This document shows positions 19,800 to 63,892 of a stretch of 64,000 nt of DNA, piece after piece (position 1 is the first letter of the stretch; each line of letters starts with the position of its first letter). Position numbers and translations under genes: made by a program. Source of the DNA: a virus (Duplodnaviria; Heunggongvirae; Uroviricota; Caudoviricetes). Under the pieces are notes generated by a model, which made no database searches, had not been told where the DNA came from, and was given only the letters and a program-made list of their open reading frames with translations. The stretch lies in IMG/VR virus record IMGVR_UViG_3300027365_000008; one strand, 5' to 3'.

Positions 19800-21746
19800 A
19801 TGATGAGTTCATACGATCTTCAATACCAAGCGGCACTCAATCGTATTCTTCAATATGGATACGATTCTGATGACAGAACCGGTGTCGGAACCCGAAAGAT
19901 GTTCGATGTCAACTTCAATGATGATCTGCGTCATGAAGTGGCTGACGAATATAAACTACCGGCACTAACCATTCGCAAGGTCTTCCCCCGCACGGCATTC
20001 TATGAACTGATGTGGATGCTCAACGGGATTACCAACGTCGATTGGCTATATGAACGAAACATCAACATCTGGAATGGAAACAGCACTCGGGAGTTCCTTG
20101 ATTCTCGTGGTCTGTATCATATCCGTGAAGGGCATATCGGTCGCGGCTATGGCTATCAGATTCGCAACTTCAATGGGGTCGATCAACTCGAAGAACTGTT
20201 CAAGGGACTGTATTACAATCCTAACGGTAGGCGACATCTAATCTCATTCTGGAATCCCGGCGATCTGAAAGAGATGGCTCTGCCTCCATGTTTCGTTGCG
20301 GGAACACAGGTTGCTCTCGCTACAGGGGAATATAAGGCCATCGATTCGATTTCGGTAGGTGATTCGGTCTTAACATCATCCGGCGAATATCATCAGGTCT
20401 ACAATGTGATGAAAACCCCTTATGACGGGGATTTTGTAACTATCAAAGCTACGGGAATTCCAAACACGACATGTACTCCAAACCATCTCTTTCTGGTCAA
20501 GGACAAAGGATATGTTAAGGCTTCTTCCATCAACGTAGGTGACTTTGTGCTTGTTAGAGGGGCAAGCGAACACGAAAATATTCCTTCTTTCGAAATCAAG
20601 AAACATTCTAAAGCGTGGGGGGTAGAATCAGAACGAACGGAAGAAATATTTAGATTGGATTCCGAAGAGAAATGGTTTATGCTTGGGTACTTCGTAGGTA
20701 ATGGGTATGTGACATCTAATCGAGAGGGAGCAAAGCCAGACCGAGGAACGATATCAATACCTCTACATAAAGAAAATGATATAATCAATAGGTTTGGTGG
20801 TGTTATTAATCTCTATGTCAAGAATAGAACACAATCCATGGTGGCTATGGAATTCAGTTCTCGTAGATGGTCGACTGTCTTTAGAGAATTCGGGAGCAAA
20901 GCGCATGGGAAATTCATCCCTACGTGGGTTGAAGAATCTCCTAAGTGGGCAATTGAATCTTTCCTTGAAGGATATATCGCAGCAGATGGATGCATACTAG
21001 GAAATTCGTATTCGATAACGACGGTATCGCCATCATTGGCATACGGGGTTCAACGGTTATTCACTAAAATGGGTAAATCGGCTCGGGTCAGTAAACAAGT
21101 TCGACCAAAGACTACGATCATAGAGGGCAGAATTGTCAACCAAAGAGACACGTATACAATATCCGTAAGGATTGATGAGACAAAACGAAGATCATTCAAT
21201 TTCATCCATAATGAGAGTGGGATGTGGTGTAAGGTGGCTAAAGTTACCCACGAGAAGTCGAATGAACACGATGGGTTTGTGTATAACCTTAGCGTAGATA
21301 CTGATCACACGTACACTGCGAACAACATAGTCAATCATAATTGCCATTTATTGTACAATTTCGTTGTGACCGGGGAATATCTCAATCTGAAGTTCTATCA
21401 GCGCAGTGCCGATATGATCCTCGGGGTTCCGACAAACATCTGTTTTGCGACATTCTTCCTGACACTGGTCGCCAAATCACTTGGTTTCAAGGTCGGCGAA
21501 GTGGCCCATTCGATTGGGGATGCTCATATCTATTCCAATCATATTGAAGTCGCCGAAGAACTCGTTAATCGAGATGCCTTCGATCAACCCGTCTTCTCGA
21601 TGTGGGTTCCCAAATACGATCCGACGCAGGGAATCGAAAGCGTGCTGGCTCCTTATCGTGATGAAAACGCATGGGAAACGTATGTCCACCTGACCTACAA
21701 ATCTCATCCGCCCATTGACAAGTCACGGCTGACCATGGCAGTATAA
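19800..21746 (+). CDS. thyA: thymidylate synthase ThyA interrupted by an in-frame intein
   Basis: ThyA motifs (GYQIRNF, ALPP-C-H..YNFVV, DAHIY); a 351-aa insertion begins directly after ALPP and ends VNHN before the catalytic Cys. Confidence 0.85.
   Translation: MMSSYDLQYQAALNRILQYGYDSDDRTGVGTRKMFDVNFNDDLRHEVADEYKLPALTIRKVFPRTAFYELMWMLNGITNVDWLYERNINIWNGNSTREFLDSRGLYHIREGHIGRGYGYQIRNFNGVDQLEELFKGLYYNPNGRRHLISFWNPGDLKEMALPPCFVAGTQVALATGEYKAIDSISVGDSVLTSSGEYHQVYNVMKTPYDGDFVTIKATGIPNTTCTPNHLFLVKDKGYVKASSINVGDFVLVRGASEHENIPSFEIKKHSKAWGVESERTEEIFRLDSEEKWFMLGYFVGNGYVTSNREGAKPDRGTISIPLHKENDIINRFGGVINLYVKNRTQSMVAMEFSSRRWSTVFREFGSKAHGKFIPTWVEESPKWAIESFLEGYIAADGCILGNSYSITTVSPSLAYGVQRLFTKMGKSARVSKQVRPKTTIIEGRIVNQRDTYTISVRIDETKRRSFNFIHNESGMWCKVAKVTHEKSNEHDGFVYNLSVDTDHTYTANNIVNHNCHLLYNFVVTGEYLNLKFYQRSADMILGVPTNICFATFFLTLVAKSLGFKVGEVAHSIGDAHIYSNHIEVAEELVNRDAFDQPVFSMWVPKYDPTQGIESVLAPYRDENAWETYVHLTYKSHPPIDKSRLTMAV
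20289..21341 (+). other. intein with a LAGLIDADG homing endonuclease domain inside thyA
   Basis: Block A CFVAGTQVAL; two LAGLIDADG-like motifs (LGYFVGNGYV, LEGYIAADGC); C-terminal IVNHN followed by +1 Cys, which is the ThyA catalytic cysteine. Confidence 0.75.
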
Positions 21747-25329: not shown

Positions 25330-28300
25330 ATGTCAACGATTATGGTTACCAAGCGTGATGGAAGCGTGGAAGACTTCAAGGTTGAGAAGGTTCGCAAATG
25401 CATCAACTGGGCATGTGAAGGTCTTCAAGTCAATCCTCTCGCATTGGAATCCCGTTTCAATGAATATCTCCAAACCGAAGTAACCACCAAAGTCATTCAA
25501 GACAGCCTCGTGTTCTGTGCGCGTTCCCTAGCCACGGCGGCTGATTCGGATTTCGTGTTCGTCGCGGGTCGCCTGATGACCATGAACATCTGGAAAGAGA
25601 CGGGCATCTATGAGAAGCCCTTCTATGACGTGCTGACCGATGGCGTGGTTCCCTATGCTATCGATAACACAATTCTTTCGAAATACACCAAAGCCGAGAT
25701 CGAGGAACTGGGTTCCTATATGGTTCAGGAACGTGATCTGAATCATAGCTTTGGTAGCGTTCTGACGGCGATCAACAAGTACCTGCTTCCTAATGAAGCC
25801 ATCCAGCCGATGATCATGGCATCCTCGATGATCATTGCCAGTGTGGAGGATCAGGAGATTCGTGTTGCGAAGGCCAAAGAGTTCTATGATTCTTTGTCAA
25901 ATCGTGAACTTTCTTTGGCAACTCCGTGGTGGGGTAACCTGCGCAGCGATGGCAATATCAGTTCGTGTTTCATCATCAAGCCGAGTGATAGCCTCGAATC
26001 GATCTTCGCTAATGTGACTCGTGCCGCAATGACTTCCAAGGCGGGTGGTGGCCTTGGCGTGTCTATGGCAGCTATTCGTGCCCAAGGCTCTCCGGTCGGT
26101 GGGCGTCCCAACTCGTCCAAAGGCGTATTCAATTGGACGAAGATTTTCAATGATGTTGCGATTGCGGTTGACCAGTGTTTTCATCCTGATACACTAGTCA
26201 CCACTCAGAATGGATTCAAGGCAATCAAAGACATTATTCCCCGCGAGGATCGTGTTCTCACCGACAACGGGAAGTTTAACCGGGTAGAAGAAAAGATCAT
26301 GTATGAGCAAAGCGAGCCGATGTATCGTGTTCGCACAGCACATGATCTTGTCGATACCTTTGTAACCGGGGAACATCCCGTTAAGGCTCTTACCAATCTG
26401 GATACCCTTGAACATGGTTACTTGGATGTGAAGGACTTGGAGATTGGTGATTATCTGGGTCAGAAGATTCCGTCTTATACGATTGAATCGGAGTTGACCC
26501 ATGAAGAACTGTACGCTTATGGTACGTCGCTCATGCTTCCGGGGGCAAATCACATCGATTCTCGATTCCTCCATATTGAACCTGAGAAACAGATGTCGAT
26601 TATCTTTGGTATGATCGATGCCAAAGGATCGGCTGACAATGCAAATGAACTGATCATCGAATCTGCGAATCTGGCTCATGAGATTCGATATCTGCTTCTC
26701 CGTAATGGAATCCCAGTAAAATCAGAATACGTCGGGGGATCATTCAAACTCACTATCCAAGCCACTGGCAAGCTGGCTCTTATGCTTGGTGTCAACGATG
26801 TCGAAGAGGTTGACTGGATCGTTTCGGATGGGTATATTTTCAGCCCCATCACTGAGTTTGAGGACGGGATTGAATACAATTCAGAAGTTTACGATCTGCG
26901 TGTGCAGAGTATTCCGTCTTATCAAACACATGCGTTCATGGCTCACAACGGCGGCAAGCGGGCAGGAGCCATTACCGTCGAACTCCCGATCTGGCACCGT
27001 GACATCGAAGGGTTCCTTGAGATTCAACATGAAACCGGCGATCTGCGCACCAAGTGCTTTGACATCTTTCCGCAAGTCGGGATGCATGATCTGTTCATGA
27101 AAATGGATGCGGCTGATGGTGAAAACGATTGGCATACATTCTGTCCGTATGAAGTGAAACAGGTTCTCGATATCCAACTGGATGAAGTTTACGGCAAGGA
27201 GTTCGAAAAGGCGTACAAGAAGTGTGTCAAAGCCTATGAGAAGGGTGATCTGAAGAACGTCGCCGTGTACAAGACACGTAACCTGATCAAGTCGATGATG
27301 CGTACCCAGTTCGAATCTGGTCTTCCGTATGTGGCCTATCTGGACACCATCAATGATGACAACCCGAATGACCATGAAGGCACGATTCCTTCCGTCAACC
27401 TTTGTGTCGCTCCCGAGACTTTGGTGCTGACTGACAAGGGCAATCTTCCTATCGTAACACTGAAAGATCAGTGGGTTAACGTCTGGAATGGACACGAGTT
27501 TAGCGAGGTCTTGGTTGAAAAGACGGCGGACCATGCTCATCTGCTGCATGTAGAAACGGAAGGCGGTCGTTCACTGGATGCGACGGACTATCACAAATGG
27601 TATCGCGTCGTCGATGGTGAAATGGAAATGGTTCGGACCTTTGAACTGAAACCGGGCGATGAAGTTTGTGTAGTCGATAACTATCCCATTGATCGTATCA
27701 AGTCTATTGATGACCAATACCGGTGGTCTGATGTATACTGTTTCAATGAACCGAAACGGCATCTGGGCGTATTCAATGGCATTATCACCGGGCAATGCAA
27801 TGAGTCATTCAGTGTCGTCAAGCCGGATGTCTATGGTCACTCGTGCAATCTGATCTCTATCGTCGCCGGTCGAGTTAAGGATTACGAACATCTGGAATAT
27901 CTGGCAGGTCTTGCGACTCGAATGCTTGACAATGGGATCGAACTGACCAAAGACCCCATGGACATTGCCGGTGCCCATAATGAGCGTTACCGCACGATTG
28001 GTATTGGCATCCAAGGTCTTCACGATTGGCTTGCCAAGAATCGCAAGATGTACAACGATACTAAATTCATCGGTGAGTTTGCAGAGACGATTCAATTTGG
28101 TGCGGTGAAAGAGAGCATCAAACTAGCTAAAGAACGCGGCGCGTATCCGGCGTACTCGGGTTCTCGGTGGGATACCGGTAAGCAGATTGCCAAGTATCGC
28201 AAGCACAGTCGTCGTGGTCTTGACTGGAATTCTTTGCAAACTGGACTTGATCAATATGGCATCCGCAATAGCCAATTGACTTCTCCGGCACCGAACACAA

Positions 28301-28695
28301 CCACGTCCATTTTCATGGATGCAGGTCCGGGCGTGATGCCGTGCTATGGTGGGTTCTATCTCAAGGACAATACCAATGGGGAGTTCCCGGTTGCCGGTAT
28401 GTATCTGAAAGAGAATCCGTTGTGCTATGCCAAGAATGCGGCTCGCTATGATCATGAAACACTCGTCAATGCGGTTGCCGAAATCCAGAAGTTCACGGAT
28501 GCGGGCATTTCGAGCGAGTATATCTTTGACCACAACAAAGAGGGCTTCAGTGCGAAAGAACTGTATGATCTGATTCATCTGGCATGGCGTAAGAAGACCA
28601 AGGCGGTCTATTACATTCGTAACATCAAGAAAGGTTCTAACCTCGAAGAAGAGGTCGGCATGAGCCAAGCATCATGCGAAGGTTGCGCAAACTAA
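25330..28695 (+). CDS. nrdA: class Ia ribonucleotide reductase alpha subunit NrdA carrying two inteins
   Basis: ATP cone (VTKRDGSVEDF); SSCFII (Cys225 region); GGKRAGAITVELPIWH; NLC-N-E active-site loop; C-terminal CEGC. Two in-frame insertions carry intein blocks. Confidence 0.85.
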   Translation: MSTIMVTKRDGSVEDFKVEKVRKCINWACEGLQVNPLALESRFNEYLQTEVTTKVIQDSLVFCARSLATAADSDFVFVAGRLMTMNIWKETGIYEKPFYDVLTDGVVPYAIDNTILSKYTKAEIEELGSYMVQERDLNHSFGSVLTAINKYLLPNEAIQPMIMASSMIIASVEDQEIRVAKAKEFYDSLSNRELSLATPWWGNLRSDGNISSCFIIKPSDSLESIFANVTRAAMTSKAGGGLGVSMAAIRAQGSPVGGRPNSSKGVFNWTKIFNDVAIAVDQCFHPDTLVTTQNGFKAIKDIIPREDRVLTDNGKFNRVEEKIMYEQSEPMYRVRTAHDLVDTFVTGEHPVKALTNLDTLEHGYLDVKDLEIGDYLGQKIPSYTIESELTHEELYAYGTSLMLPGANHIDSRFLHIEPEKQMSIIFGMIDAKGSADNANELIIESANLAHEIRYLLLRNGIPVKSEYVGGSFKLTIQATGKLALMLGVNDVEEVDWIVSDGYIFSPITEFEDGIEYNSEVYDLRVQSIPSYQTHAFMAHNGGKRAGAITVELPIWHRDIEGFLEIQHETGDLRTKCFDIFPQVGMHDLFMKMDAADGENDWHTFCPYEVKQVLDIQLDEVYGKEFEKAYKKCVKAYEKGDLKNVAVYKTRNLIKSMMRTQFESGLPYVAYLDTINDDNPNDHEGTIPSVNLCVAPETLVLTDKGNLPIVTLKDQWVNVWNGHEFSEVLVEKTADHAHLLHVETEGGRSLDATDYHKWYRVVDGEMEMVRTFELKPGDEVCVVDNYPIDRIKSIDDQYRWSDVYCFNEPKRHLGVFNGIITGQCNESFSVVKPDVYGHSCNLISIVAGRVKDYEHLEYLAGLATRMLDNGIELTKDPMDIAGAHNERYRTIGIGIQGLHDWLAKNRKMYNDTKFIGEFAETIQFGAVKESIKLAKERGAYPAYSGSRWDTGKQIAKYRKHSRRGLDWNSLQTGLDQYGIRNSQLTSPAPNTTTSIFMDAGPGVMPCYGGFYLKDNTNGEFPVAGMYLKENPLCYAKNAARYDHETLVNAVAEIQKFTDAGISSEYIFDHNKEGFSAKELYDLIHLAWRKKTKAVYYIRNIKKGSNLEEEVGMSQASCEGCAN
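26176..26949 (+). other. intein 1 in nrdA (258 aa, LAGLIDADG-type) with a non-canonical +1 residue
   Basis: Block A CFHPDTLV; block B TGEHPVKALT; IIFGMIDAKGS LAGLIDADG-like; block G VYDLRVQ...HAFMAHN; the next extein residue is Gly, not Cys/Ser/Thr. Confidence 0.65.
27403..27795 (+). other. intein 2 in nrdA (131-aa mini-intein) ending in Gln
   Basis: Inserted at NL|C-N-E; block A CVAPETLVLT; block G VYCFNEPKRHLGVFNGIITGQ followed by +1 Cys (the active-site Cys439 equivalent). Confidence 0.65.
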
Positions 28696-48072: not shown

Positions 48073-48783
48073 TTAACCCCCGCTGTAGGACGAAGAACGG
48101 GCTACACTGGAAGTCCCACGGAAAGGATTCGAACGTGTCGTTACCTTACCCGTCGAACTTGATACATTGATACGCGAAGCCGTCTTGTTGGATTTGAAAG
48201 CACCAATTGCCCTAGAATTGGAAGAGAAATACGTGCTGTTGCCATAGGACTTCCGCTTCTTTCGATTATCGGTGTAGTACATCTGTTTATATCGGTCGCG
48301 GGTATGGCTGTTGCCGGTTACATAGCCAGCGAGTGCCCCAATGCCCCCGGCCAGAAGCATGGATGTCATGATGTCATTTGACATGTCCTCATGCCGCTGT
48401 TCGCCAGCAGAATCCCGATACACTACCCTCGTCTTACAATCAGAATCAATGATCTTCACATCCACGATGTTAGGATTCTGTTGCATGAGATCATTGCGCA
48501 TCTTATCGAGATCGATGCCCAGACGTGCAAACATGGCATCGCTGGCAGTTTCGATGAAATACCCAGCCTTTTCATACATGAAGGCCAGCGCATTGTCCAT
48601 TGCGGCAGAATAATCGTCCACTTCTTCCGCATCAAATTCTGCGATTTTCAGTGGCGACTCGGATAGGAAGTTAGGAACCAAAACTTCCAACTCGTTCCGA
48701 TTGTGTTGATAGATACCCCATGACAGGGTATCTTCAAACATGTTTTCGAGTGAAAGCTGATACGGAACTTCTTTGATCTTCAC
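48073..48783 (-). CDS. hypothetical protein with one TM helix and an S/T-rich tail
   Basis: IMTSMLLAGGIGALAGYVT helix. Confidence 0.4.
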   Translation of the reverse strand: MKIKEVPYQLSLENMFEDTLSWGIYQHNRNELEVLVPNFLSESPLKIAEFDAEEVDDYSAAMDNALAFMYEKAGYFIETASDAMFARLGIDLDKMRNDLMQQNPNIVDVKIIDSDCKTRVVYRDSAGEQRHEDMSNDIMTSMLLAGGIGALAGYVTGNSHTRDRYKQMYYTDNRKKRKSYGNSTYFSSNSRAIGAFKSNKTASRINVSSSTGKVTTRSNPFRGTSSVARSSSYSGG

Positions 48784-49784
48784 TGGCTATCTCCATTCTG
48801 AATCAATCCTCGCCCTTCGGTCCCTGTTTTGAAGTTCCCACAATCCACATCACCAAGATCGGTGTGTACCAGAATGTCACCGGTCTTGCGGATTACAAAG
48901 TTTCCCTTGCCGATAACATCTTTCAGGCGTTCACGCAACTTCTTCTCACTCAGTGAGTTATCATAAGCATCTTTACCAATGAATCGAAGTGCGTCAGTCT
49001 CATCACCCGTGTGTTCTTCCGTATCGGTTCCTTTGAACACAATATCAAACGGATCATATTCCTCTTCCGACATTTCACTGATCGACACTGGAATCAGGTT
49101 TCCAGTTGAATCATTGACGAGGAAGGCTTTTCCTTCATAGACCACCACGTTGTGAAGTTGGGGAGTCATGTTGTCCCGCTTCATGAAGGTGTTCCAATCG
49201 ATAGCCTTGCCGCGTTCGATAACATCCCCATCGGTGAGCCAGACTTCGGTATACTTGATCTTGTCCATCTCGTATTCATTCAGAATGCTACCGAACACTT
49301 CCTGAATGTAAGCATCGAAGCGACGCTTGTTGTGAACGAGCAGATCGTTGTGCTGGTCAGTCTTACCACCATAGCCGTAGAACTCACGATGACCCATGAA
49401 CTCAGTATGCGGCTGCGTCACACGCACTTCACCAACCGCCCACAGCATGAACCCGGCTGACGCCACTTGGCTACAGGCGACGGTGATGGTGTGCTTGAAC
49501 ATCTTCATGATGCTTGCCAGTTCGAGCAGCATATCTACCCGACCGCCACTGGAATTGATATAGAAGATGGCACTGGTGTACTTCTCAGCCAATTGATACA
49601 GTTCTACCAGTTCATTTGTATTCTCTTGCGGGCTACTGAAATTGCCGCGTAGATGAACCTCCACCCGTTGCTTCTGTTCATCGACCTTCACCGTCATGAA
49701 CTTGGCGAACTTAGCCGCCAGCGGGAAACCACCATCATAGTTGGTTGCGTTGAAGTCTTGAACTACCGGATTGTGTTGGATCAT
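48780..49784 (-). CDS. ClpP-family (S14) serine protease-like protein with a long C-terminal extension
   Basis: YINSSGGRV and TVACSQVASAGFMLWAVG match ClpP's YINSPGG and GQAASMG motifs. Confidence 0.6.
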   Translation of the reverse strand: MIQHNPVVQDFNATNYDGGFPLAAKFAKFMTVKVDEQKQRVEVHLRGNFSSPQENTNELVELYQLAEKYTSAIFYINSSGGRVDMLLELASIMKMFKHTITVACSQVASAGFMLWAVGEVRVTQPHTEFMGHREFYGYGGKTDQHNDLLVHNKRRFDAYIQEVFGSILNEYEMDKIKYTEVWLTDGDVIERGKAIDWNTFMKRDNMTPQLHNVVVYEGKAFLVNDSTGNLIPVSISEMSEEEYDPFDIVFKGTDTEEHTGDETDALRFIGKDAYDNSLSEKKLRERLKDVIGKGNFVIRKTGDILVHTDLGDVDCGNFKTGTEGRGLIQNGDSQ

Positions 49785-50935: not shown

Positions 50936-51144
50936 TCATTCTTTATAGTACGCCCCTGCTTTGCGCACCGTAGCTATCCAGCTTCTTTTTCTTCCGTCCT
51001 TGTGGCCAGTATGGGGCTTTCATACCTGACTCTCTGCGCGTCCACAACCCATCTTAACAGACCATTACCGGATATCAAAGCCCTAATGCCTAAAGATTAG
51101 TCATCTCATGCTAATACTTAGGTATTAGACGGCAGCCATATCCA

Positions 51145-51297
51145 CTAAAAAGCCCGCGTGTTAGCGGGCTTTTTATGCTTCTGTTTGCGTTTGTACTTCG
51201 TCTTATCCCTTTCGACTTTTGGCCGATAGGTCGGAGACGTTACCAACGCTTTCAAGGCATTATCCTTTACCTTGCCACGCTTACTGTCATGCTTCAT
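51145..51297 (-). CDS. arfA: ArfA-like alternative ribosome-rescue factor (50 codons)
   Basis: MKHDSKRGKVKDNALKALVTSPTYRPKVERDKTKYKRKQKHKK... aligns with E. coli ArfA ([40 protein letters not shown]). The last 9 codons are encoded by the terminator hairpin; not in the supplied ORF track. Confidence 0.6.
   Translation of the reverse strand: MKHDSKRGKVKDNALKALVTSPTYRPKVERDKTKYKRKQKHKKPANTRAF
51148..51176 (-). terminator. rho-independent terminator hairpin embedded in the arfA-like 3' coding end
   Basis: aaaagcccgc-taacac-gcgggctttt; the TAG stop overlaps the U-tract. Confidence 0.65.
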
Positions 51298-51437
51298 GCC
51301 ACTTCCTTAACCAACTTCGCTTTCACTTTACAACGCCCACACTCGGGACACTCATCATCTACCACTTCCTCGTCCATTTCAATCCATTCGGATTGACATT
51401 CAGGACAACAATAGTACAATTCAAAAAGAGGTTCCAT
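51294..51437 (-). CDS. 47-aa zinc-ribbon protein, translationally coupled to the arfA-like gene
   Basis: CCPEC...18 aa...CPECGRC; start overlaps the upstream stop (TAATG) and its stop overlaps the arfA ATG (ATGA). Confidence 0.4.
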   Translation of the reverse strand: MEPLFELYYCCPECQSEWIEMDEEVVDDECPECGRCKVKAKLVKEVA

Positions 51438-51865
51438 TACCAACCCATCAGACCTTTGATTATCATGAACGCAGTAGGGATCACAACGGAAGTCAACCCC
51501 CCGATGGCAATCTTTAGCGTCTTCGCGTTATTGCTTGCTTCTTGTTGTGTTGCTTTCAACTCATCTTTAATGCGTCCCAATTCCTTTTCTGTCTCAGCCA
51601 GTCGATACTTGATGTTCGACAGTTCCTTATCATGGCGATGTAGCATTTCCGCAATCTGAGAAACAGAATCAGAAATCTTCAACAGTTCGTCTCGCTGATT
51701 GGCAAGCAACGTCTGCGTCTTCACCACTTCCTTGAGAGTATTAGAAATCTCTTGCAAGGATTCCTTATTAAACTCATTGGCTGCTTCAAGGGACGCTACC
51801 CTTTCACTAATTCTCCTTTCTTCGTATCCAGATTCTAATGACATAGCAGTTGCCCTCAAATACAT
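51437..51865 (-). CDS. coiled-coil protein with a C-terminal TM anchor
   Basis: Heptad-rich middle; C-terminal IAIGGLTSVVIPTAFMIIKGLMGW. Confidence 0.4.
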   Translation of the reverse strand: MYLRATAMSLESGYEERRISERVASLEAANEFNKESLQEISNTLKEVVKTQTLLANQRDELLKISDSVSQIAEMLHRHDKELSNIKYRLAETEKELGRIKDELKATQQEASNNAKTLKIAIGGLTSVVIPTAFMIIKGLMGW

Positions 51866-51995: not shown

Positions 51996-52457
51996 CTATC
52001 GCCATTTCTCCATCATCCGTTGTTCATGCTCAAGCGCACTATAGTATGATACCAAGTCATCCCCACATGATGCCCTCAGTGTAGCATACACATGCTTATT
52101 GTATAGGCTCCATGTGCCGATATTGCCCGGATAATCCCGATACGTCAGTTTCTTATGTTCAACAAAGAAACGACATACCGCTGCACTTCGTGACATGCCC
52201 GCATCACAATGGACTAGGATTTGCTTGTCCGTGTTCATGACAGAATCAACCATCTTGATAGCCATGTCCAAATCGAACATCACGTAGCCACAAGTTTGGA
52301 TTGTAATGTCATCGAACTCAAACCTAACCACATCCTCCCATCCAGATAGATTAGCCTGATCGTTAGGATGAGTAATGCTTATCACTCGGGTATCCGTTAA
52401 CGCATCCATAGACTCGATGATATGACGAGGAACAAAACCTATTGACCTAGTTATCAT
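51996..52457 (-). CDS. dual-specificity (Cys-based, CX5R) phosphatase
   Basis: VHCDAGMSRSAA P-loop of PTP/DUSP enzymes, the family that includes RNA 5'-phosphatases. Confidence 0.7.
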   Translation of the reverse strand: MITRSIGFVPRHIIESMDALTDTRVISITHPNDQANLSGWEDVVRFEFDDITIQTCGYVMFDLDMAIKMVDSVMNTDKQILVHCDAGMSRSAAVCRFFVEHKKLTYRDYPGNIGTWSLYNKHVYATLRASCGDDLVSYYSALEHEQRMMEKWR

Positions 52458-53032
52458 CTGATTGCCACGCTCGGGTCAGATTTGTTCAGGAAATGTTTTT
52501 CAGCCGGGCTATGGATGCGAACCCAACCAATAACCGCGTCAAAATCGCGCACCATGCGCTTAGACGAGCCGAAAGAACCCTTCCGTAGCAACGCCTTACT
52601 GTCACCGTTGTCGTCTTTAAACAGGCACACAACGCGATATACGGTGCCTTTCGGTGATTCCCACATCTCATGGGGGCGAAATACCTCACAATCTCCATAC
52701 CGGGCATCATATACCTGATATTGAGAAAGATTGAATTGGCCTTCGACCGAATCCCGCTTGCGGCGAAGGTAGTCCTCCCAAATGACCCACCCCCGATGGT
52801 CATCCGCCAGTGCGTAGAGTTCGTCGGTCACATCTTTATGTGCCCATCTTGCGAAGTCATCCAGACTCATCGAACGGAATTTGTTTCCTGTTGCAATCGA
52901 AGGTGAATCGTATTGGACTTGATTGTTTCCAATCCAAATAACTTGCCGGTCATTTACATAACCGGCACCTGCCTGACAAGGCTTCTTCCCACGATACACA
53001 CGATTCTTTTGAATCTCTTCAGGCTGCATCAC
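52454..53032 (-). CDS. hypothetical protein
   Basis: ORF. Confidence 0.4.
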   Translation of the reverse strand: MMQPEEIQKNRVYRGKKPCQAGAGYVNDRQVIWIGNNQVQYDSPSIATGNKFRSMSLDDFARWAHKDVTDELYALADDHRGWVIWEDYLRRKRDSVEGQFNLSQYQVYDARYGDCEVFRPHEMWESPKGTVYRVVCLFKDDNGDSKALLRKGSFGSSKRMVRDFDAVIGWVRIHSPAEKHFLNKSDPSVAIR

Positions 53033-53431: not shown

Positions 53432-54028
53432 TCACGCCGCTTCTACAGCGGTTTCTGCGTCCCACGGGTCAATCTCGTCCGTGACATCTTCGAGTTTGAC
53501 GTTTGATTCGCTTTTGACGAATCCTTTCTCTACTGCCGCCTTGCGAGCATCATCCTCGGACGCTGCCACGATGTACATGCTTCGCTTGTTACGGTTTGTG
53601 GCTTTGAACGTCATGAGATCGGGACGAAGGTACGTCATTTCTTGCGGGACCATTCCCGTGTTGACATACAGGCGCTTGAAGTCCTCTTCACGGTACACGC
53701 GATAGCTAACCCCCGCAGTGTGTTGAGTTGAACGGTTAGACCATGTTCTCACCCCGGAGTGCCACTGGCGATTCTTCTTTGAATCAGGATAGAACTCGGC
53801 GATTGCGAATTGGTTTCCATTCCATTCTTCAAACGAGATCGTAACACGCCCGCGTCCTTCAACCCACAACACAACCCCACGGACATGGTGCATGATTTTG
53901 TTGTCGTAGCACAGGGTAACGCGATCACCAGCCTTGAGTTTGGTAGTCATTGCTTGTCTCCTTTTAACTGACATGAGAGAGCGTCTTGTCACGACGCTTG
54001 CGCATATTGTGTCGAGCCGTTCGGTCAC
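53432..54028 (-). CDS. hypothetical protein
   Basis: ORF; possibly a later start (MTTKLKAGDR). Confidence 0.4.
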   Translation of the reverse strand: MTERLDTICASVVTRRSLMSVKRRQAMTTKLKAGDRVTLCYDNKIMHHVRGVVLWVEGRGRVTISFEEWNGNQFAIAEFYPDSKKNRQWHSGVRTWSNRSTQHTAGVSYRVYREEDFKRLYVNTGMVPQEMTYLRPDLMTFKATNRNKRSMYIVAASEDDARKAAVEKGFVKSESNVKLEDVTDEIDPWDAETAVEAA

Positions 54029-54656: not shown

Positions 54657-54690
54657 ATAAAAAAGGAGGGGCCAATTGGCCCCTCAATGG
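54657..54690 (-). terminator. rho-independent terminator
   Basis: gaggggccaattggcccctc followed on the minus strand by cttttttat. Confidence 0.7.
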
Positions 54691-54715: not shown

Positions 54716-56137
54716 CTACCCTACATCGCGCATGTAGATCGTCTTGCAGTCTTCCAGTTCAATATCTGAAGCGCCCTCGGATGTAATCACCAGCAGGTTT
54801 CGACATTCCATCGGAAGCGCCGATTCCAGTGATTGGTGGGGGATATAGCCATCCGTGAAAATGATGAGTGCGTTGATAGGCTCACCATCATCCAGTTTCT
54901 CGCCAGCATATTCAGCCAACGGGGCCATGTCCGTTCCACCCCCGCCAATCCAATCGAGACTGACGTTACTGAAGTCGTCACCGTCCTCGGAGTTGTAGAT
55001 ACCGATAACGTGATAGCTGGTATCACATGTCACCAGATGCACGGTCCATGACTCAAATTGATCGAGAATACCCTTAAGTTCGGCAGCGGCTTCCTTGAGT
55101 TCACGTTCGCTCATCGAACCTGACGTGTCAACACCCCACACCAGTTCAATCTTGCTCCCTGTCAAACTCGGGAACACCACACCACCTTCACCCGTTCGAC
55201 GGGACAGACGATTGTAGGTCGGGCGTTCCTTAGTGGAGGCAACGATGTTTTCGTTAAGTTCATCTTTCCAGTTAACGCGGGGCTTCGCTAAGTCTTGGAA
55301 AGAACGCACCATGTCGCCTTCATGCTCACCAATACTTTTTGTGGCACTGGCGTTCGCAACAGCAGCCGCAGCTTCCTGACGGTTCATGCCCTTTTCACCG
55401 TCGCTTTGCTCACGCCCCGAAACGCTATCCATGGGCATCTGACCAGCCGGAGCGCCACCCGCGCTTCCTTGGCCCTTCGATGGCTTGTCCTTTCCTTGTT
55501 GCCCGGCTTGACCTTCACCGTCATCAGGGCGCTGACCGCCGCCGTGGGCTTCGCACGCTTTCTGCGCGTCACCATCGTTCTCTTCAAGCAACAGATGGTA
55601 AATCTCATCAGATGACATGCCCACGAAGCGTTCTTGATATAGAACGAACTCGGGCCGTTCTACATAAAGACGAAATCGCTCATCATGCGAAACACCATCG
55701 TTCTCAGTCTTGTACGTACCTGAACAGAACAAATTGATGTTGTAATCCGTGGCGATGTTCCACAATTCAGGATTGTAACCGGATTCCATCTGACGCCCGG
55801 AGTGTTCCTGAAAGATATGAAGAATCTCATGGAGCAACACGAACGCCCGCTGTTCGTTGTTTTCCAAACGATTCATCCAGAATACCGGGTTAATGAAGAT
55901 CATGTTTTTGCCATTGACCGGCATCGCGCCAGCCGTGGGCAGATCGGGCGACCAGAAATACACACACTGAAACATCAGATGCGCCATGAGCGGGGATGCA
56001 ATCGCAATGCTCGCTCGTGCTTCCGAAAAGGTTTCCATCCATTCAGGCTGAATGTCCTTGTCTTTGATTAGAGTCGGCATCCGGGTCAGCATGACCTCGC
56101 CGATGCCATCCTCTTTCTTATCAGTCTGTGTGGTCAT
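54716..56137 (-). CDS. VWA-domain protein with an N-terminal DUF2201-like HExxH domain (CobT-like partner of a MoxR ATPase)
   Basis: LLHEILHIFQEH; MIDAS motif WGVDTSGSMS; G/Q/A-rich linker. Confidence 0.65.
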   Translation of the reverse strand: MTTQTDKKEDGIGEVMLTRMPTLIKDKDIQPEWMETFSEARASIAIASPLMAHLMFQCVYFWSPDLPTAGAMPVNGKNMIFINPVFWMNRLENNEQRAFVLLHEILHIFQEHSGRQMESGYNPELWNIATDYNINLFCSGTYKTENDGVSHDERFRLYVERPEFVLYQERFVGMSSDEIYHLLLEENDGDAQKACEAHGGGQRPDDGEGQAGQQGKDKPSKGQGSAGGAPAGQMPMDSVSGREQSDGEKGMNRQEAAAAVANASATKSIGEHEGDMVRSFQDLAKPRVNWKDELNENIVASTKERPTYNRLSRRTGEGGVVFPSLTGSKIELVWGVDTSGSMSERELKEAAAELKGILDQFESWTVHLVTCDTSYHVIGIYNSEDGDDFSNVSLDWIGGGGTDMAPLAEYAGEKLDDGEPINALIIFTDGYIPHQSLESALPMECRNLLVITSEGASDIELEDCKTIYMRDVG

Positions 56138-56205
56138 TCTCGTTGCTCCTTTGCTCGGTTGACCCGTATATCATGGCACACATGGCGATGATACACAAGG
56201 TTTTG

Positions 56206-56436
56206 TTAATGCTTCGTCAGACTCTCTTTTTCAATCTGACGTTGACGCCCATAATGTCCTGTTTCTTCACGACTCATAACAGGAACCGTTAACGCTTCTT
56301 CCAACGTCCAATCTGATTTGAGTCTCCGTCTAACCGTATCAGGTTTGATATTGTGTTTCCGGGCGAGCAAAGCCAATTCTCCGCGTTTCAGTTTACGATT
56401 AGATTTAGCAGTGACGATTTCAGATTGTGTTAACTT
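56206..56436 (-). CDS. small putative DNA-binding protein
   Basis: Basic, helix-rich 77-aa ORF (MKLTQSEIVTAKSNRKLKRGELALLARKHNIKPDTVRRRLK). Confidence 0.35.
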   Translation of the reverse strand, partial: KLTQSEIVTAKSNRKLKRGELALLARKHNIKPDTVRRRLKSDWTLEEALTVPVMSREETGHYGRQRQIEKESLTKH

Positions 56437-56515
56437 CATTCCCGTGCGTCCTATAAACAAGTCTGAGACACAAAAAAGGGGAACCGAAGTTCCCCTTTCA
56501 CCTTCCGAGTGTAAC

Positions 56516-57709
56516 TTACTTCACGCCCTTCAGCTTGGACAGAATCTTAGTCACTTGGCCTTGGAAAGCCTTGAACTTGCGGAACTTGGTGACCAGCTTG
56601 ATATCTCGCTTGATTGTCTTCATGACGATGATTTTCATCTCGTCGGGGAGTTGTTCGAGGACTGTAGTAAGGTTATCCATGTCAGTTGTCATGTCAACCT
56701 CTTTGCCGTTCTCTTTCTCCCCATGGCGTCCCAGCGCATCCATAATCTCGAATGCCATGGAAGTCGATACCGCGTACTTGACTTCCTCGCGTCCTTCCGG
56801 CATTTGATACTTCAGCGTACCCTTACGAATGGCGCTCCAGTCGGGAAGTTCATCATAGAAGCGACGGAATCCCATGAACTTCGTGGCGATTTCTGAACCG
56901 ATGGCACCGGCAACCGCAACCGTCAGCAGGGAGTCATCAGCGGTCAGCGCCGTGTTGTTCAGATGACGATTGACGAACTCCCATGAACGCGGTGTGGTGA
57001 AGGCCGCTTCCGTGTCATTCGGAGCGTTGTAGATGTCCTTTTTCGACCAGCTAAGGAAGCCAATGATAGACGGATTGAAACGACGCTCTACCGCATACGT
57101 CAGGAATGATTCAGCCGCTTGCTTCGGGTCGATTTCCAGATGCATACCGAAACGGTTAGCCGCAGCCGGAAGCAGTTCCCGCGCACCAGTCTTGTCAGAC
57201 TTCAGGTTACCCGCCGCGACGATGGCGCAAGTGTCTGGTAGCTTCGTGCCATTCTGAACAGTGCGGTCCAGAATCAGACGATAGGCGGCGTGTTGAACAT
57301 GCGGCGGTGCGTTTTTGATTTCATCCAGAAACAGGATGTAAAACTTGTTCGGGTCTTGCGGCCACCATGACGGAGTAGAGAAGAACATCTCTTTCGCATC
57401 ATAAGTGGTTTCTTCACCGTTGCGATAGTGGCTCATTTCATAGCCCGCATCCGCAACATATGGAATGCCCTGAACGTCAGCGGCTTCCATGGCTGACAGT
57501 CGAATGTCAACGACTTCGACCGGCTTGCCGAGACGTTCGCCGAGACGCTGGGCGAGTTGTCCGATGATGGCACTTTTGCCCAGACCGGGGGAACCGTGCA
57601 AACAGACCGGATCAGGGACGTAACCAGCGGTAAAGGCGTCGCCGAAAGATGCTTCGATCAGGGTAGCGGCTTGCTTGATGTTGACGACGTTTTGCTTGTT
57701 GCCAGACAT
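56516..57709 (-). CDS. MoxR-family AAA+ ATPase (CobS-like)
   Basis: Walker A LHGSPGLGKS; Walker B YILFLDEI; sensor motifs; 397 aa. Confidence 0.75.
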   Translation of the reverse strand: MSGNKQNVVNIKQAATLIEASFGDAFTAGYVPDPVCLHGSPGLGKSAIIGQLAQRLGERLGKPVEVVDIRLSAMEAADVQGIPYVADAGYEMSHYRNGEETTYDAKEMFFSTPSWWPQDPNKFYILFLDEIKNAPPHVQHAAYRLILDRTVQNGTKLPDTCAIVAAGNLKSDKTGARELLPAAANRFGMHLEIDPKQAAESFLTYAVERRFNPSIIGFLSWSKKDIYNAPNDTEAAFTTPRSWEFVNRHLNNTALTADDSLLTVAVAGAIGSEIATKFMGFRRFYDELPDWSAIRKGTLKYQMPEGREEVKYAVSTSMAFEIMDALGRHGEKENGKEVDMTTDMDNLTTVLEQLPDEMKIIVMKTIKRDIKLVTKFRKFKAFQGQVTKILSKLKGVK

Positions 57710-63728: not shown

Positions 63729-63892
63729 GATATTTCCCCCTTTAAACAGATTATGTCACATTGATGTTGCTTTGATAAAAGCAAGGTAGAACATCCCGAA
63801 AATCAAAAGGCCGGGAATCAATTCCCGGCCCACAATCCAAAGCAAGCGCATCTTACATATCCCATTGCAGTAGGAAACGGATTTTAGTTGGT

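Follow-up and report, generated by a model that had tools for sequence, protein, structure and literature searches.

A phage-encoded ArfA-family ribosome-rescue gene with an intrinsic-terminator-like hairpin inside its 3' coding end

The window analysed here is a 64,000 nt stretch of DNA from a virus of the Caudoviricetes (IMG/VR record IMGVR_UViG_3300027365_000008), taken at its full length, and its minus strand carries a short gene for a homologue of the bacterial ribosome-rescue factor ArfA. The open reading frame (ORF) occupies positions 51145..51297 and runs for 50 codons from an ATG start to a TAG stop, giving the product MKHDSKRGKVKDNALKALVTSPTYRPKVERDKTKYKRKQKHKKPANTRAF when read from 51297 to 51145. 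A Shine-Dalgarno sequence, AAGGAAG (51302..51308, minus strand), lies 4 nt 5' of the arfA ATG, within the end of the preceding gene. As a first-pass annotation made from the sequence alone had described, that gene encodes a 47 aa zinc-ribbon protein with a CPEC...CPEC pattern (51294..51437, minus strand), and its TGA stop overlaps the arfA start codon as ATGA. The start of the zinc-ribbon ORF overlaps in turn, as TAATG, the stop of a 142 aa ORF (51437..51865, minus strand), which encodes a coiled-coil protein with a C-terminal transmembrane segment (phrog_2990, E 3.5e-8). A hairpin resembling an intrinsic terminator covers the other end of arfA (51146..51175, minus strand) and is followed by an intergenic gap of 209 nt (50936..51144). 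The first-pass annotation called arfA unannotated; the 50-codon minus-strand ORF is indeed there, but the identical protein is present in public predicted-protein collections (JGI, ENA and Logan) with precomputed matches to Pfam families PF03889 and PF23876. The contig on which the identical ArfA protein is recorded has 158,006 bp.

The comparison with the ArfA profile (PF03889) that the first-pass annotation had proposed as a check gave a significant match (E 6.3e-13, 48.4 bits), in which residues 2–42 align to positions 1–44 of the 44-position model. The model is fully covered and the score lies ∼23 bits over the gathering cutoff of 25.5 bits. A phmmer search of the PDB returned solely chains of E. 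coli ArfA, in six distinct sequences, with 5u4i_w as the best match (E 4.5e-6). The alignment to E. coli ArfA, the reference sequence of which was confirmed against NC_000913.3, extends over residues 4 to 48 with a single 3-residue gap, where KKGKGSY in E. coli faces KT---KY in the phage protein. The claim that the ORF aligns with ArfA along its whole length was thus borne out, and the ArfA motif proposed for it matches overall, except that RG stands in place of KG and the 3-residue gap interrupts it.

ArfA is a short peptide that becomes ordered only when it is on the ribosome, and the segments that carry its activity can be recognised in the phage protein. Equivalents of E. coli A18, L19, P23, F25, R26, V29, E30, Y39, R41, K42, K44 and H45 are all kept. 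The RF2-recruiting N-terminal segment and the (F/Y)RxxVE strand are present, KDNALKALVTSPTYRPKVE pairing with a 19-residue stretch of E. coli ArfA, and the basic C-terminal segment YKRKQKH aligns to YMRKGKH. We take the A18 equivalent and its neighbours to be the residues that recruit release factor 2 (RF2), as in published structures, and mutation of A18 presumably abolishes RF2 activation. In an alignment of 36 homologues, G8, N13, A17 and V19 are at least 90% conserved and R37 is invariant. On this homology, the product is a true member of the ArfA family and a predicted RF2-dependent alternative ribosome-rescue factor.

An exhaustive HMMER scan of 1.84 billion representative proteins yielded 33 homologues at E ≤ 1e-3, the best of which, other than the protein itself, scored 52 bits at 67% identity. 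A word-indexed protein search with the phage ArfA retrieved the query alone, a scan of IMG/VR using the single ArfA protein gave no match, an exact-sequence look-up of the protein among contigs was equally empty, and a metagenome scan found no relative beyond 58% identity. No ArfA match was obtained with the NCBIfam profiles, and the PHROG matches of the protein were weak and to families of unknown function. Together with the very short length of the ORF, these last two results are what could be said for a chance ORF, or a decaying gene fragment, lying beside an ordinary terminator. That explanation is highly improbable, as it has to contend with a full-length Pfam match far above its cutoff, the 33 homologues of the exhaustive search, a good Shine-Dalgarno sequence with ATGA coupling to the gene before, and synteny with coiled-coil and zinc-ribbon genes that is kept in other contigs. 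It is effectively refuted by the Pfam, PDB phmmer and homologue searches.

The phage protein also scores above threshold against DUF7230 (PF23876), at 31 bits compared with a cutoff of 27 bits, over residues 24–45 and model positions 15–36 of 42. This match covers the channel-binding half of the protein; DUF7230 lacks the N-terminal KGxIKDNA segment, which the window protein has. The protein consequently bridges PF03889 and PF23876, and ArfA is the best name for it, that match being the stronger of the two where they overlap. Within ArfA it falls in a divergent subgroup with a shortened loop (DKT-KY). Membership of this subgroup, the DUF7230 score and the frequency in phages of DUF7230 proteins without KGxIKDNA would suit an ArfA-derived ribosome binder with another job, such as blocking the mRNA channel against SmpB-tmRNA tagging of phage proteins, or titrating RF2. 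We regard such a change of function as improbable, given that the N-terminal half, with its counterpart of E. coli A18, is complete and conserved, that the whole ArfA model is matched, and that nothing specific indicates inhibition.

The last nine codons of arfA form the stem-loop, as the first-pass annotation had recognised. The hairpin was identified by folding and by terminator scans, spans codons 42–50 and is flanked by A5 and U5. It reads AAAAAGCCCGC-UAACAC-GCGGGCUUUUU, or, in codons, AAA AAG CCC GCU AAC ACG CGG GCU UUU followed by UAG. Its core, GCCCGC/GCGGGC (51169..51152, minus strand), comprises six G:C pairs around the 6 nt loop UAACAC, and the stem begins 3 nt past the codon for H41 of the conserved K-H. 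Downstream of the core, the U-tract and stop codon are merged as UUUUUAG (51145..51151, minus strand), with the U-tract at 51151..51147 and the TAG at 51147..51145. The tract and the stop share one base, the U at 51147, which also agrees with the earlier description. In a 51 nt frame, the minimum free energy is -20.9 kcal/mol (z -4.6); 200 shuffled sequences yielded no fold as good.

A first terminator scan lists this hairpin on the plus strand alone, having extended the stem through the A:U pairs and so consumed the U-tract. A second scan of both strands, which sought GC-rich stems followed by a U-tract and allowed the U's to count as tail, found it on the minus strand. The structure has the features of an intrinsic terminator, namely a GC-rich stem-loop followed by U5 at the end of a transcription unit. 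An Rfam search gave nothing at gathering score; sub-threshold matches of the hairpin to Trp and Leu leaders (30.6 bits compared with 41) were rejected, as they reflect a generic terminator shape.

Two independent controls bear on whether a terminator in this position could be accidental. Within the 64 kb window, the arfA hairpin resembles 13 other strong coding-strand terminators, all of which start 4–30 nt beyond the stop of the gene before them. Of these 14, it alone starts within an ORF, 26 nt short of where the stop codon ends. An apparent second in-ORF terminator at 63831 was rejected, as the TTG-started ORF that hosts it is spurious.

The second control made use of relatives. DNA was fetched for the closest homologues, and 11 full-length relatives of phage or metagenomic origin were compared. 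A hairpin and U-tract were found in six (L017, L020, L021, L022, L024 and L043), with a start between -14 and +5 nt relative to where the K-H codon ends. In these six the stem sequences are largely unrelated, and the ORFs run 4–24 codons past the terminator. Homology is visible between the stem of the window and those of L017 and L020 (AAGCCCGC/GCGGGCUU compared with AAGCCCUC/GAGGGUUU), with AAGCCC...GGGYUUUU in common and differences on both arms that keep the pairing, at the cost of one G:U pair in L017 and L020. Because these stems are homologous, the three proteins share the residues K-P...(A/G)-F. Counted from the ATG through the U-tract, L017 and L020 are 82.7% identical, compared with ∼39% over the following 51 nt, into which both ORFs nominally continue. 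A separate metagenome scan added 20 arfA loci, all 20 of which have a strong hairpin that begins between -20 and +18 nt relative to the K-H-equivalent codon, and the nearest bacterial homologues, in Shewanella nanhaiensis and S. colwelliana, have the same in-ORF placement. As the within-window and the relatives controls agree, the position of this stable hairpin in the window arfA is not a matter of chance, and as far as sequence comparison can tell it follows the known arfA design. The first-pass annotation had likewise proposed that the regulatory logic of bacterial arfA is reproduced here. The terminator placement, described previously for bacterial arfA (PMC8012679), is seen in close phage, metagenomic and bacterial relatives.

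The distance from the end of the stem to the stop codon was pooled from 24 loci in which the ORF reaches or passes the terminator. The median was 8.7 codons (range -0.7 to 96), and the distances fit a geometric decay with p ∼0.064 per codon. The stop falls within one codon of the stem end at two loci, compared with 3.0 loci expected from the geometric fit within two codons. The two are the window, with its TAG in the U-tract, and the metagenomic L062, in which a UAA lies in the U-tract (UUUUUAA). The ORF tails past the terminator therefore look unselected, as would be expected of sequence that is not read, and the early TAG of the window needs no special explanation because it fits the geometric spread.

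These results can be set against the simplest alternative to a regulated gene, in which a functional ArfA is made constitutively. The hairpin would then simply be the terminator of the unit, overlapping the gene end by coincidence; transcripts would contain the UAG, translation would end with RF1, and there would be no meaningful coupling to transfer-messenger RNA (tmRNA). In effect, the gene would supply a pre-truncated, always-on rescue factor, like that of Pseudoalteromonas phage J2-1. The UAG does fall in the first 7 nt beyond the stem, the product of the complete ORF has the length of the active truncated form of E. coli ArfA and no hydrophobic tail, and J2-1, L018, L039 and L040 have ArfAs of 46–54 aa with ordinary stops and no hairpin. 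However, the six closest gated relatives carry their in-ORF terminators where the window hairpin lies, those of L017 and L020 being homologous to it, all other strong terminators of the window start past a stop codon, and the stop position looks unselected over the 24 loci, which argues that ribosomes seldom reach it. We therefore hold constitutive synthesis to be possible but rather unlikely.

On balance, we favour the view that the window encodes a functional phage ArfA the synthesis of which is at least partly coupled to host trans-translation, and consider this moderately probable. Its footing at this locus is the ArfA homology, the predicted terminator within the ORF, the conserved placement of that terminator and the position at the end of an apparent operon. 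By homology, the basic C-terminal YKRKQKH would fill the vacant mRNA channel once a ribosome has stalled at the 3' end of an mRNA, and the N-terminal GKVKDNALKALV...YRPKVE would recruit host RF2 for peptide release. Most arfA transcripts should end in or beside the U-tract. Those with ends before or within the UAG would be non-stop messages, at the 3' end of which the ribosome would stall, and host tmRNA-SmpB would tag the nascent ArfA for degradation for as long as it had spare capacity. Once trans-translation was saturated, untagged active ArfA of ∼48–50 aa would accumulate, so that the phage would produce its rescue factor chiefly as stalled ribosomes build up in the course of infection. 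The bacterial arfA mechanism that forms the basis for these steps has been described previously (PMC8012679, PMC4245945).

Several observations weigh against this interpretation. It draws on sequence and homology, and both the presence of tmRNA in the host and compatibility with host RF2 are assumptions. The stop lies 5–7 nt beyond the GC stem, the G of UAG being the 7th nucleotide, and intrinsic terminators usually release the transcript ∼7–9 nt past the stem. Any 3' end at least 7 nt past the stem contains the UAG, and the tmRNA coupling may therefore be leaky: many primary 3' ends may carry a complete UAG and be terminated normally by RF1, whereas shorter or trimmed ends would be non-stop. 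The outcome would depend on the exact 3' end. The full ORF is also without a destabilising hydrophobic tail of the E. coli type, and read-through transcripts encode the same 50 aa protein, so that the tmRNA gate could be weak. Finally, four phage or phage-like relatives (J2-1, L018, L039 and L040) have no hairpin and an ordinary stop at 46–54 aa, which in three of them abuts or overlaps the next gene, and phages evidently do well with such an ungated ArfA. The window allele is probably a leakier version of the bacterial arfA switch, because the TAG lies inside the U-tract and a destabilising tail is missing; normally terminated, active protein would come from some 3' ends and from every read-through transcript.

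The relatives range from fully gated genes, in which the ORF runs 4–24 codons beyond the terminator, to ungated ones with no hairpin and an ordinary stop. It is tempting to see in this a graded series of tmRNA dependence among phage arfA genes, with DUF7230 peptides as a widespread and so far unrecognised class of phage binders of the ribosome channel, although we offer this joint reading as a doubtful one. Its gated class may be defined by an in-ORF terminator and a long untranslated tail, its ungated class by a J2-1-like ordinary stop, and a dual-mode class may comprise the window and L062, with the stop in the U-tract. Such a series may tune the dependence of the phage rescue factor on the state of host trans-translation. 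If this is true, a gated copy would be a phage-borne sensor of the ribosome stalling that follows from host mRNA decay or RNase-based defence.

Comparison with E. coli ArfA (YhdL, PF03889) makes the likenesses and differences concrete. The KDNA(I/L)xAL...(F/Y)RxxVE and YxRKxKH segments are alike, and both genes have a stable in-ORF hairpin, which covers codons 51–67 in E. coli and begins 15 nt past H45, compared with 3 nt past H41 in the phage. The E. coli ORF has 72 codons, of which the last ∼17 encode the destabilising hydrophobic tail, whereas the phage ORF stops in the U-tract and has no tail; the loop KKGKGS of E. coli is cut to KT, and the gene is carried on a phage genome. In E. coli, full-length ArfA is destabilised by its hydrophobic tail, and the hairpin is cleaved by RNase III or causes premature termination (PMC8012679). 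More generally, in-ORF hairpins of bacterial arfA genes give rise to non-stop mRNA (PMC8012679, citing Schaub 2012).

The closest bacterial homologues are those of Shewanella nanhaiensis and S. colwelliana (L026 and L027), at 58% and 51% identity. Like the phage gene, they have a GC-rich hairpin and U-tract starting a few nt past the K-H-equivalent codon. Unlike the phage gene, their ORFs extend ∼10 (L027) to 18 (L026) codons beyond the terminator, and they are chromosomal genes, the products of which have longer N-termini and the full KKGKGSY loop. The first-pass annotation had suggested that a phage ArfA could counter host toxin RNases or complement a host that lacks its own; the taxa of the nearest bacterial homologues (Shewanella, Aliivibrio) carry their own arfA.

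BrfA of Bacillus subtilis is a separate named rescue factor that belongs to a different protein family from ArfA. The two work in the same way, through RF2-dependent rescue and a terminator ahead of the stop codon. BrfA is small, the rho-independent terminator of its gene lies before the stop, and the protein is therefore made from non-stop mRNA and repressed by trans-translation (PMC8012679).

Among phage copies, the J2-1 ArfA (ATN93434) has the DKTKY(K/R)RKxKHK variant in common with the window protein; its gene differs in having no 3' hairpin and a TGA that overlaps the ATG of the next gene. The J2-1 gene is annotated as arfA in its record, and further annotated phage ArfAs are g10 of Citromicrobium phage RXM (PMC8953757) and gp30 of pelagiphage HTVC027P, which is transcribed both early and late (PMC12753301). 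Neither paper discusses regulation or reports a test of function for these proteins. In the limited library of literature searched, we found no functional study of a phage ArfA and no mention of the terminator gate being kept or lost. An Enterococcus phage paper considered as a report of arfA was rejected, since its current text does not contain ArfA. The ArfA family, its mechanism, the in-ORF hairpin of arfA, the analogous terminator of brfA and the existence of phage copies are therefore already known, and the range of phage arfA alleles from gated to ungated is a modest new angle.

Bacteria keep ArfA in reserve and switch it on only once trans-translation has failed. Should a lytic phage carry arfA together with this self-limiting switch, it may read the ribosome-stalling state of its host and, if so, could free ribosomes without tagging nascent proteins for degradation. 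Such an ability would be important in cells where truncated messages abound through host mRNA decay or RNase-type defences. The benefit to the phage is a matter of speculation, for which host mRNA breakdown during takeover, defence RNases and the avoided tagging of phage proteins are candidates. The locus and its relatives offer natural gated, leaky and ungated alleles, the practical value of which is moderate.

A second class of bacterial arfA genes was encountered among the loci collected (L028, L030, L032, L033, L034, L036, L037, L038, L053–L056, L058 and L060). In these, the terminator hairpin holds the stop codon in its loop, or has a long stem with the stop directly at its end. The complete ORFs have ...KAA, NAA, HAA or MAA as their final residues, reminiscent of the AA that closes the ssrA degradation tag, and a product that reaches the stop codon might therefore remain a protease substrate.

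DUF7230 resembles the C-terminal half of ArfA (xLFRQRVxKDKTKYxRKxKH). Loci that encode it include L011 and L044 (Pseudomonas phages MAG1 and phiMK), L029, L031 and L035 (Sedimenticola and Chromatiaceae) and L003–L016 (IMG/VR). A 42 aa form occurs in 135 Pseudomonas aeruginosa phage records, with Pakpunavirus types among those listed. In Sedimenticola and Chromatiaceae, DUF7230 genes resemble arfA in having a very strong in-ORF terminator (in one example, -40 kcal/mol and z -10), which directly follows KHKKAP. The terminator annotated over the 3' end of DUF7230 in the phiMK record (L044 1596–1644) was rejected, as there is neither a stem-loop nor a U-tract and the annotation looks like a false positive. 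No paper in the limited library searched mentions DUF7230, which, judging by its sequence, may be an unrecognised lineage of rescue factors.

Two further phage records contain ArfA-like genes under other guises. Pseudomonas phage pf16 has an unannotated, GTG-started ORF of 47 codons (KU873925.1 131778–131921; L002 3001–3144) with a strong ArfA match (72.5 bits); the start of this ORF is overlapped in the record by an opposite-strand hypothetical coding sequence, pf16_199. A 9 bp hairpin (AGCUGAAUG...CAUUCAGCU) lies across its TGA and is not followed by a U-tract, and resembles an RNase III-type site more than it does a terminator. In Salmonella phage Arash, the coding sequence gp99c (OQ632216.1; L045 1423–1647), beside the phage tRNA gene cluster, holds an ArfA homologue under the name ‘ribosomal protein L2’, an annotation that is probably wrong.

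The window arfA appears to be the last gene of its transcription unit. The upstream terminator at 54666..54685 (minus strand), found in the terminator scans, is probably the start boundary of this unit, which would comprise genes at 53432–54028 and 52454–53032, the dual-specificity protein phosphatase (DSP) gene, and the coiled-coil, zinc-ribbon and arfA genes. In the 209 nt gap 3' of the arfA terminator, a promoter-like site (51078..51051, minus strand) is consistent with arfA being the last gene, and no significant structure was found there (z -0.38). The DSP gene (51996–52457, minus strand) was recognised by a Pfam DSPc match of 42.7 bits.

All zinc-ribbon profile matches of the 47 aa protein are sub-threshold; a homologue with 49% identity is encoded two genes 5' of arfA in L024, where the gene order is coiled-coil (2–220), zinc ribbon, one further gene and arfA. 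A homologue of the coiled-coil protein (40% identity; L018 541–963) lies immediately 5' of arfA in L018. This gene thus recurs directly 5' of arfA or of the zinc ribbon in three unrelated contigs (the window, L018 and L024). We ascribe the recurrence of the coiled-coil and zinc-ribbon genes near arfA to the shared ancestry of a small module; no functional link of the zinc ribbon to rescue was seen. The coiled-coil protein also has weak PHROG matches named ‘hemolysin’.

The window encodes, among others, a ribonucleotide reductase (RNR), a thymidylate synthase (ThyA), a family-B DNA polymerase (PolB) and a DnaB-like helicase, with PHROG matches, and is part of a large lytic phage. The arfA gene is thus phage-encoded, as the first-pass annotation had held. 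The GC content is ∼46–47%, and ARAGORN found no tRNA and no tmRNA in the window. A megablast search of 2 kb around arfA against GenBank phages gave no match, indicating no close sequenced relative there. The top PolB match is to Alishewanella phages at 39% identity, and a few window genes have counterparts in Pseudomonas phage pf16.

Elsewhere in the window, a gene 1.4 kb 3' of arfA (48780–49784, minus strand) encodes a 334 aa protein with a ClpP-family protease domain (Pfam CLP_protease, 39 bits), which may be a ClpP-type or a head-maturation protease. Proteins tagged by tmRNA are degraded by ClpXP. At 54716–57709 (minus strand), in the replication and early-gene region, a MoxR-like ATPase (phrog_1297) is followed by a DUF2201 metallopeptidase/VWA-like protein, which we take to recall the pairing of MoxR-type ATPases with VWA proteins. 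The genes for ThyA (19800–21746, plus strand, 648 aa) and the RNR large subunit (25330–28695, plus strand, 1121 aa) each show their family match in two separated blocks. The inserts of ∼350 and ∼250 aa between these blocks, part of each of which matches PHROG 21587, are likely to be inteins or homing-endonuclease insertions.

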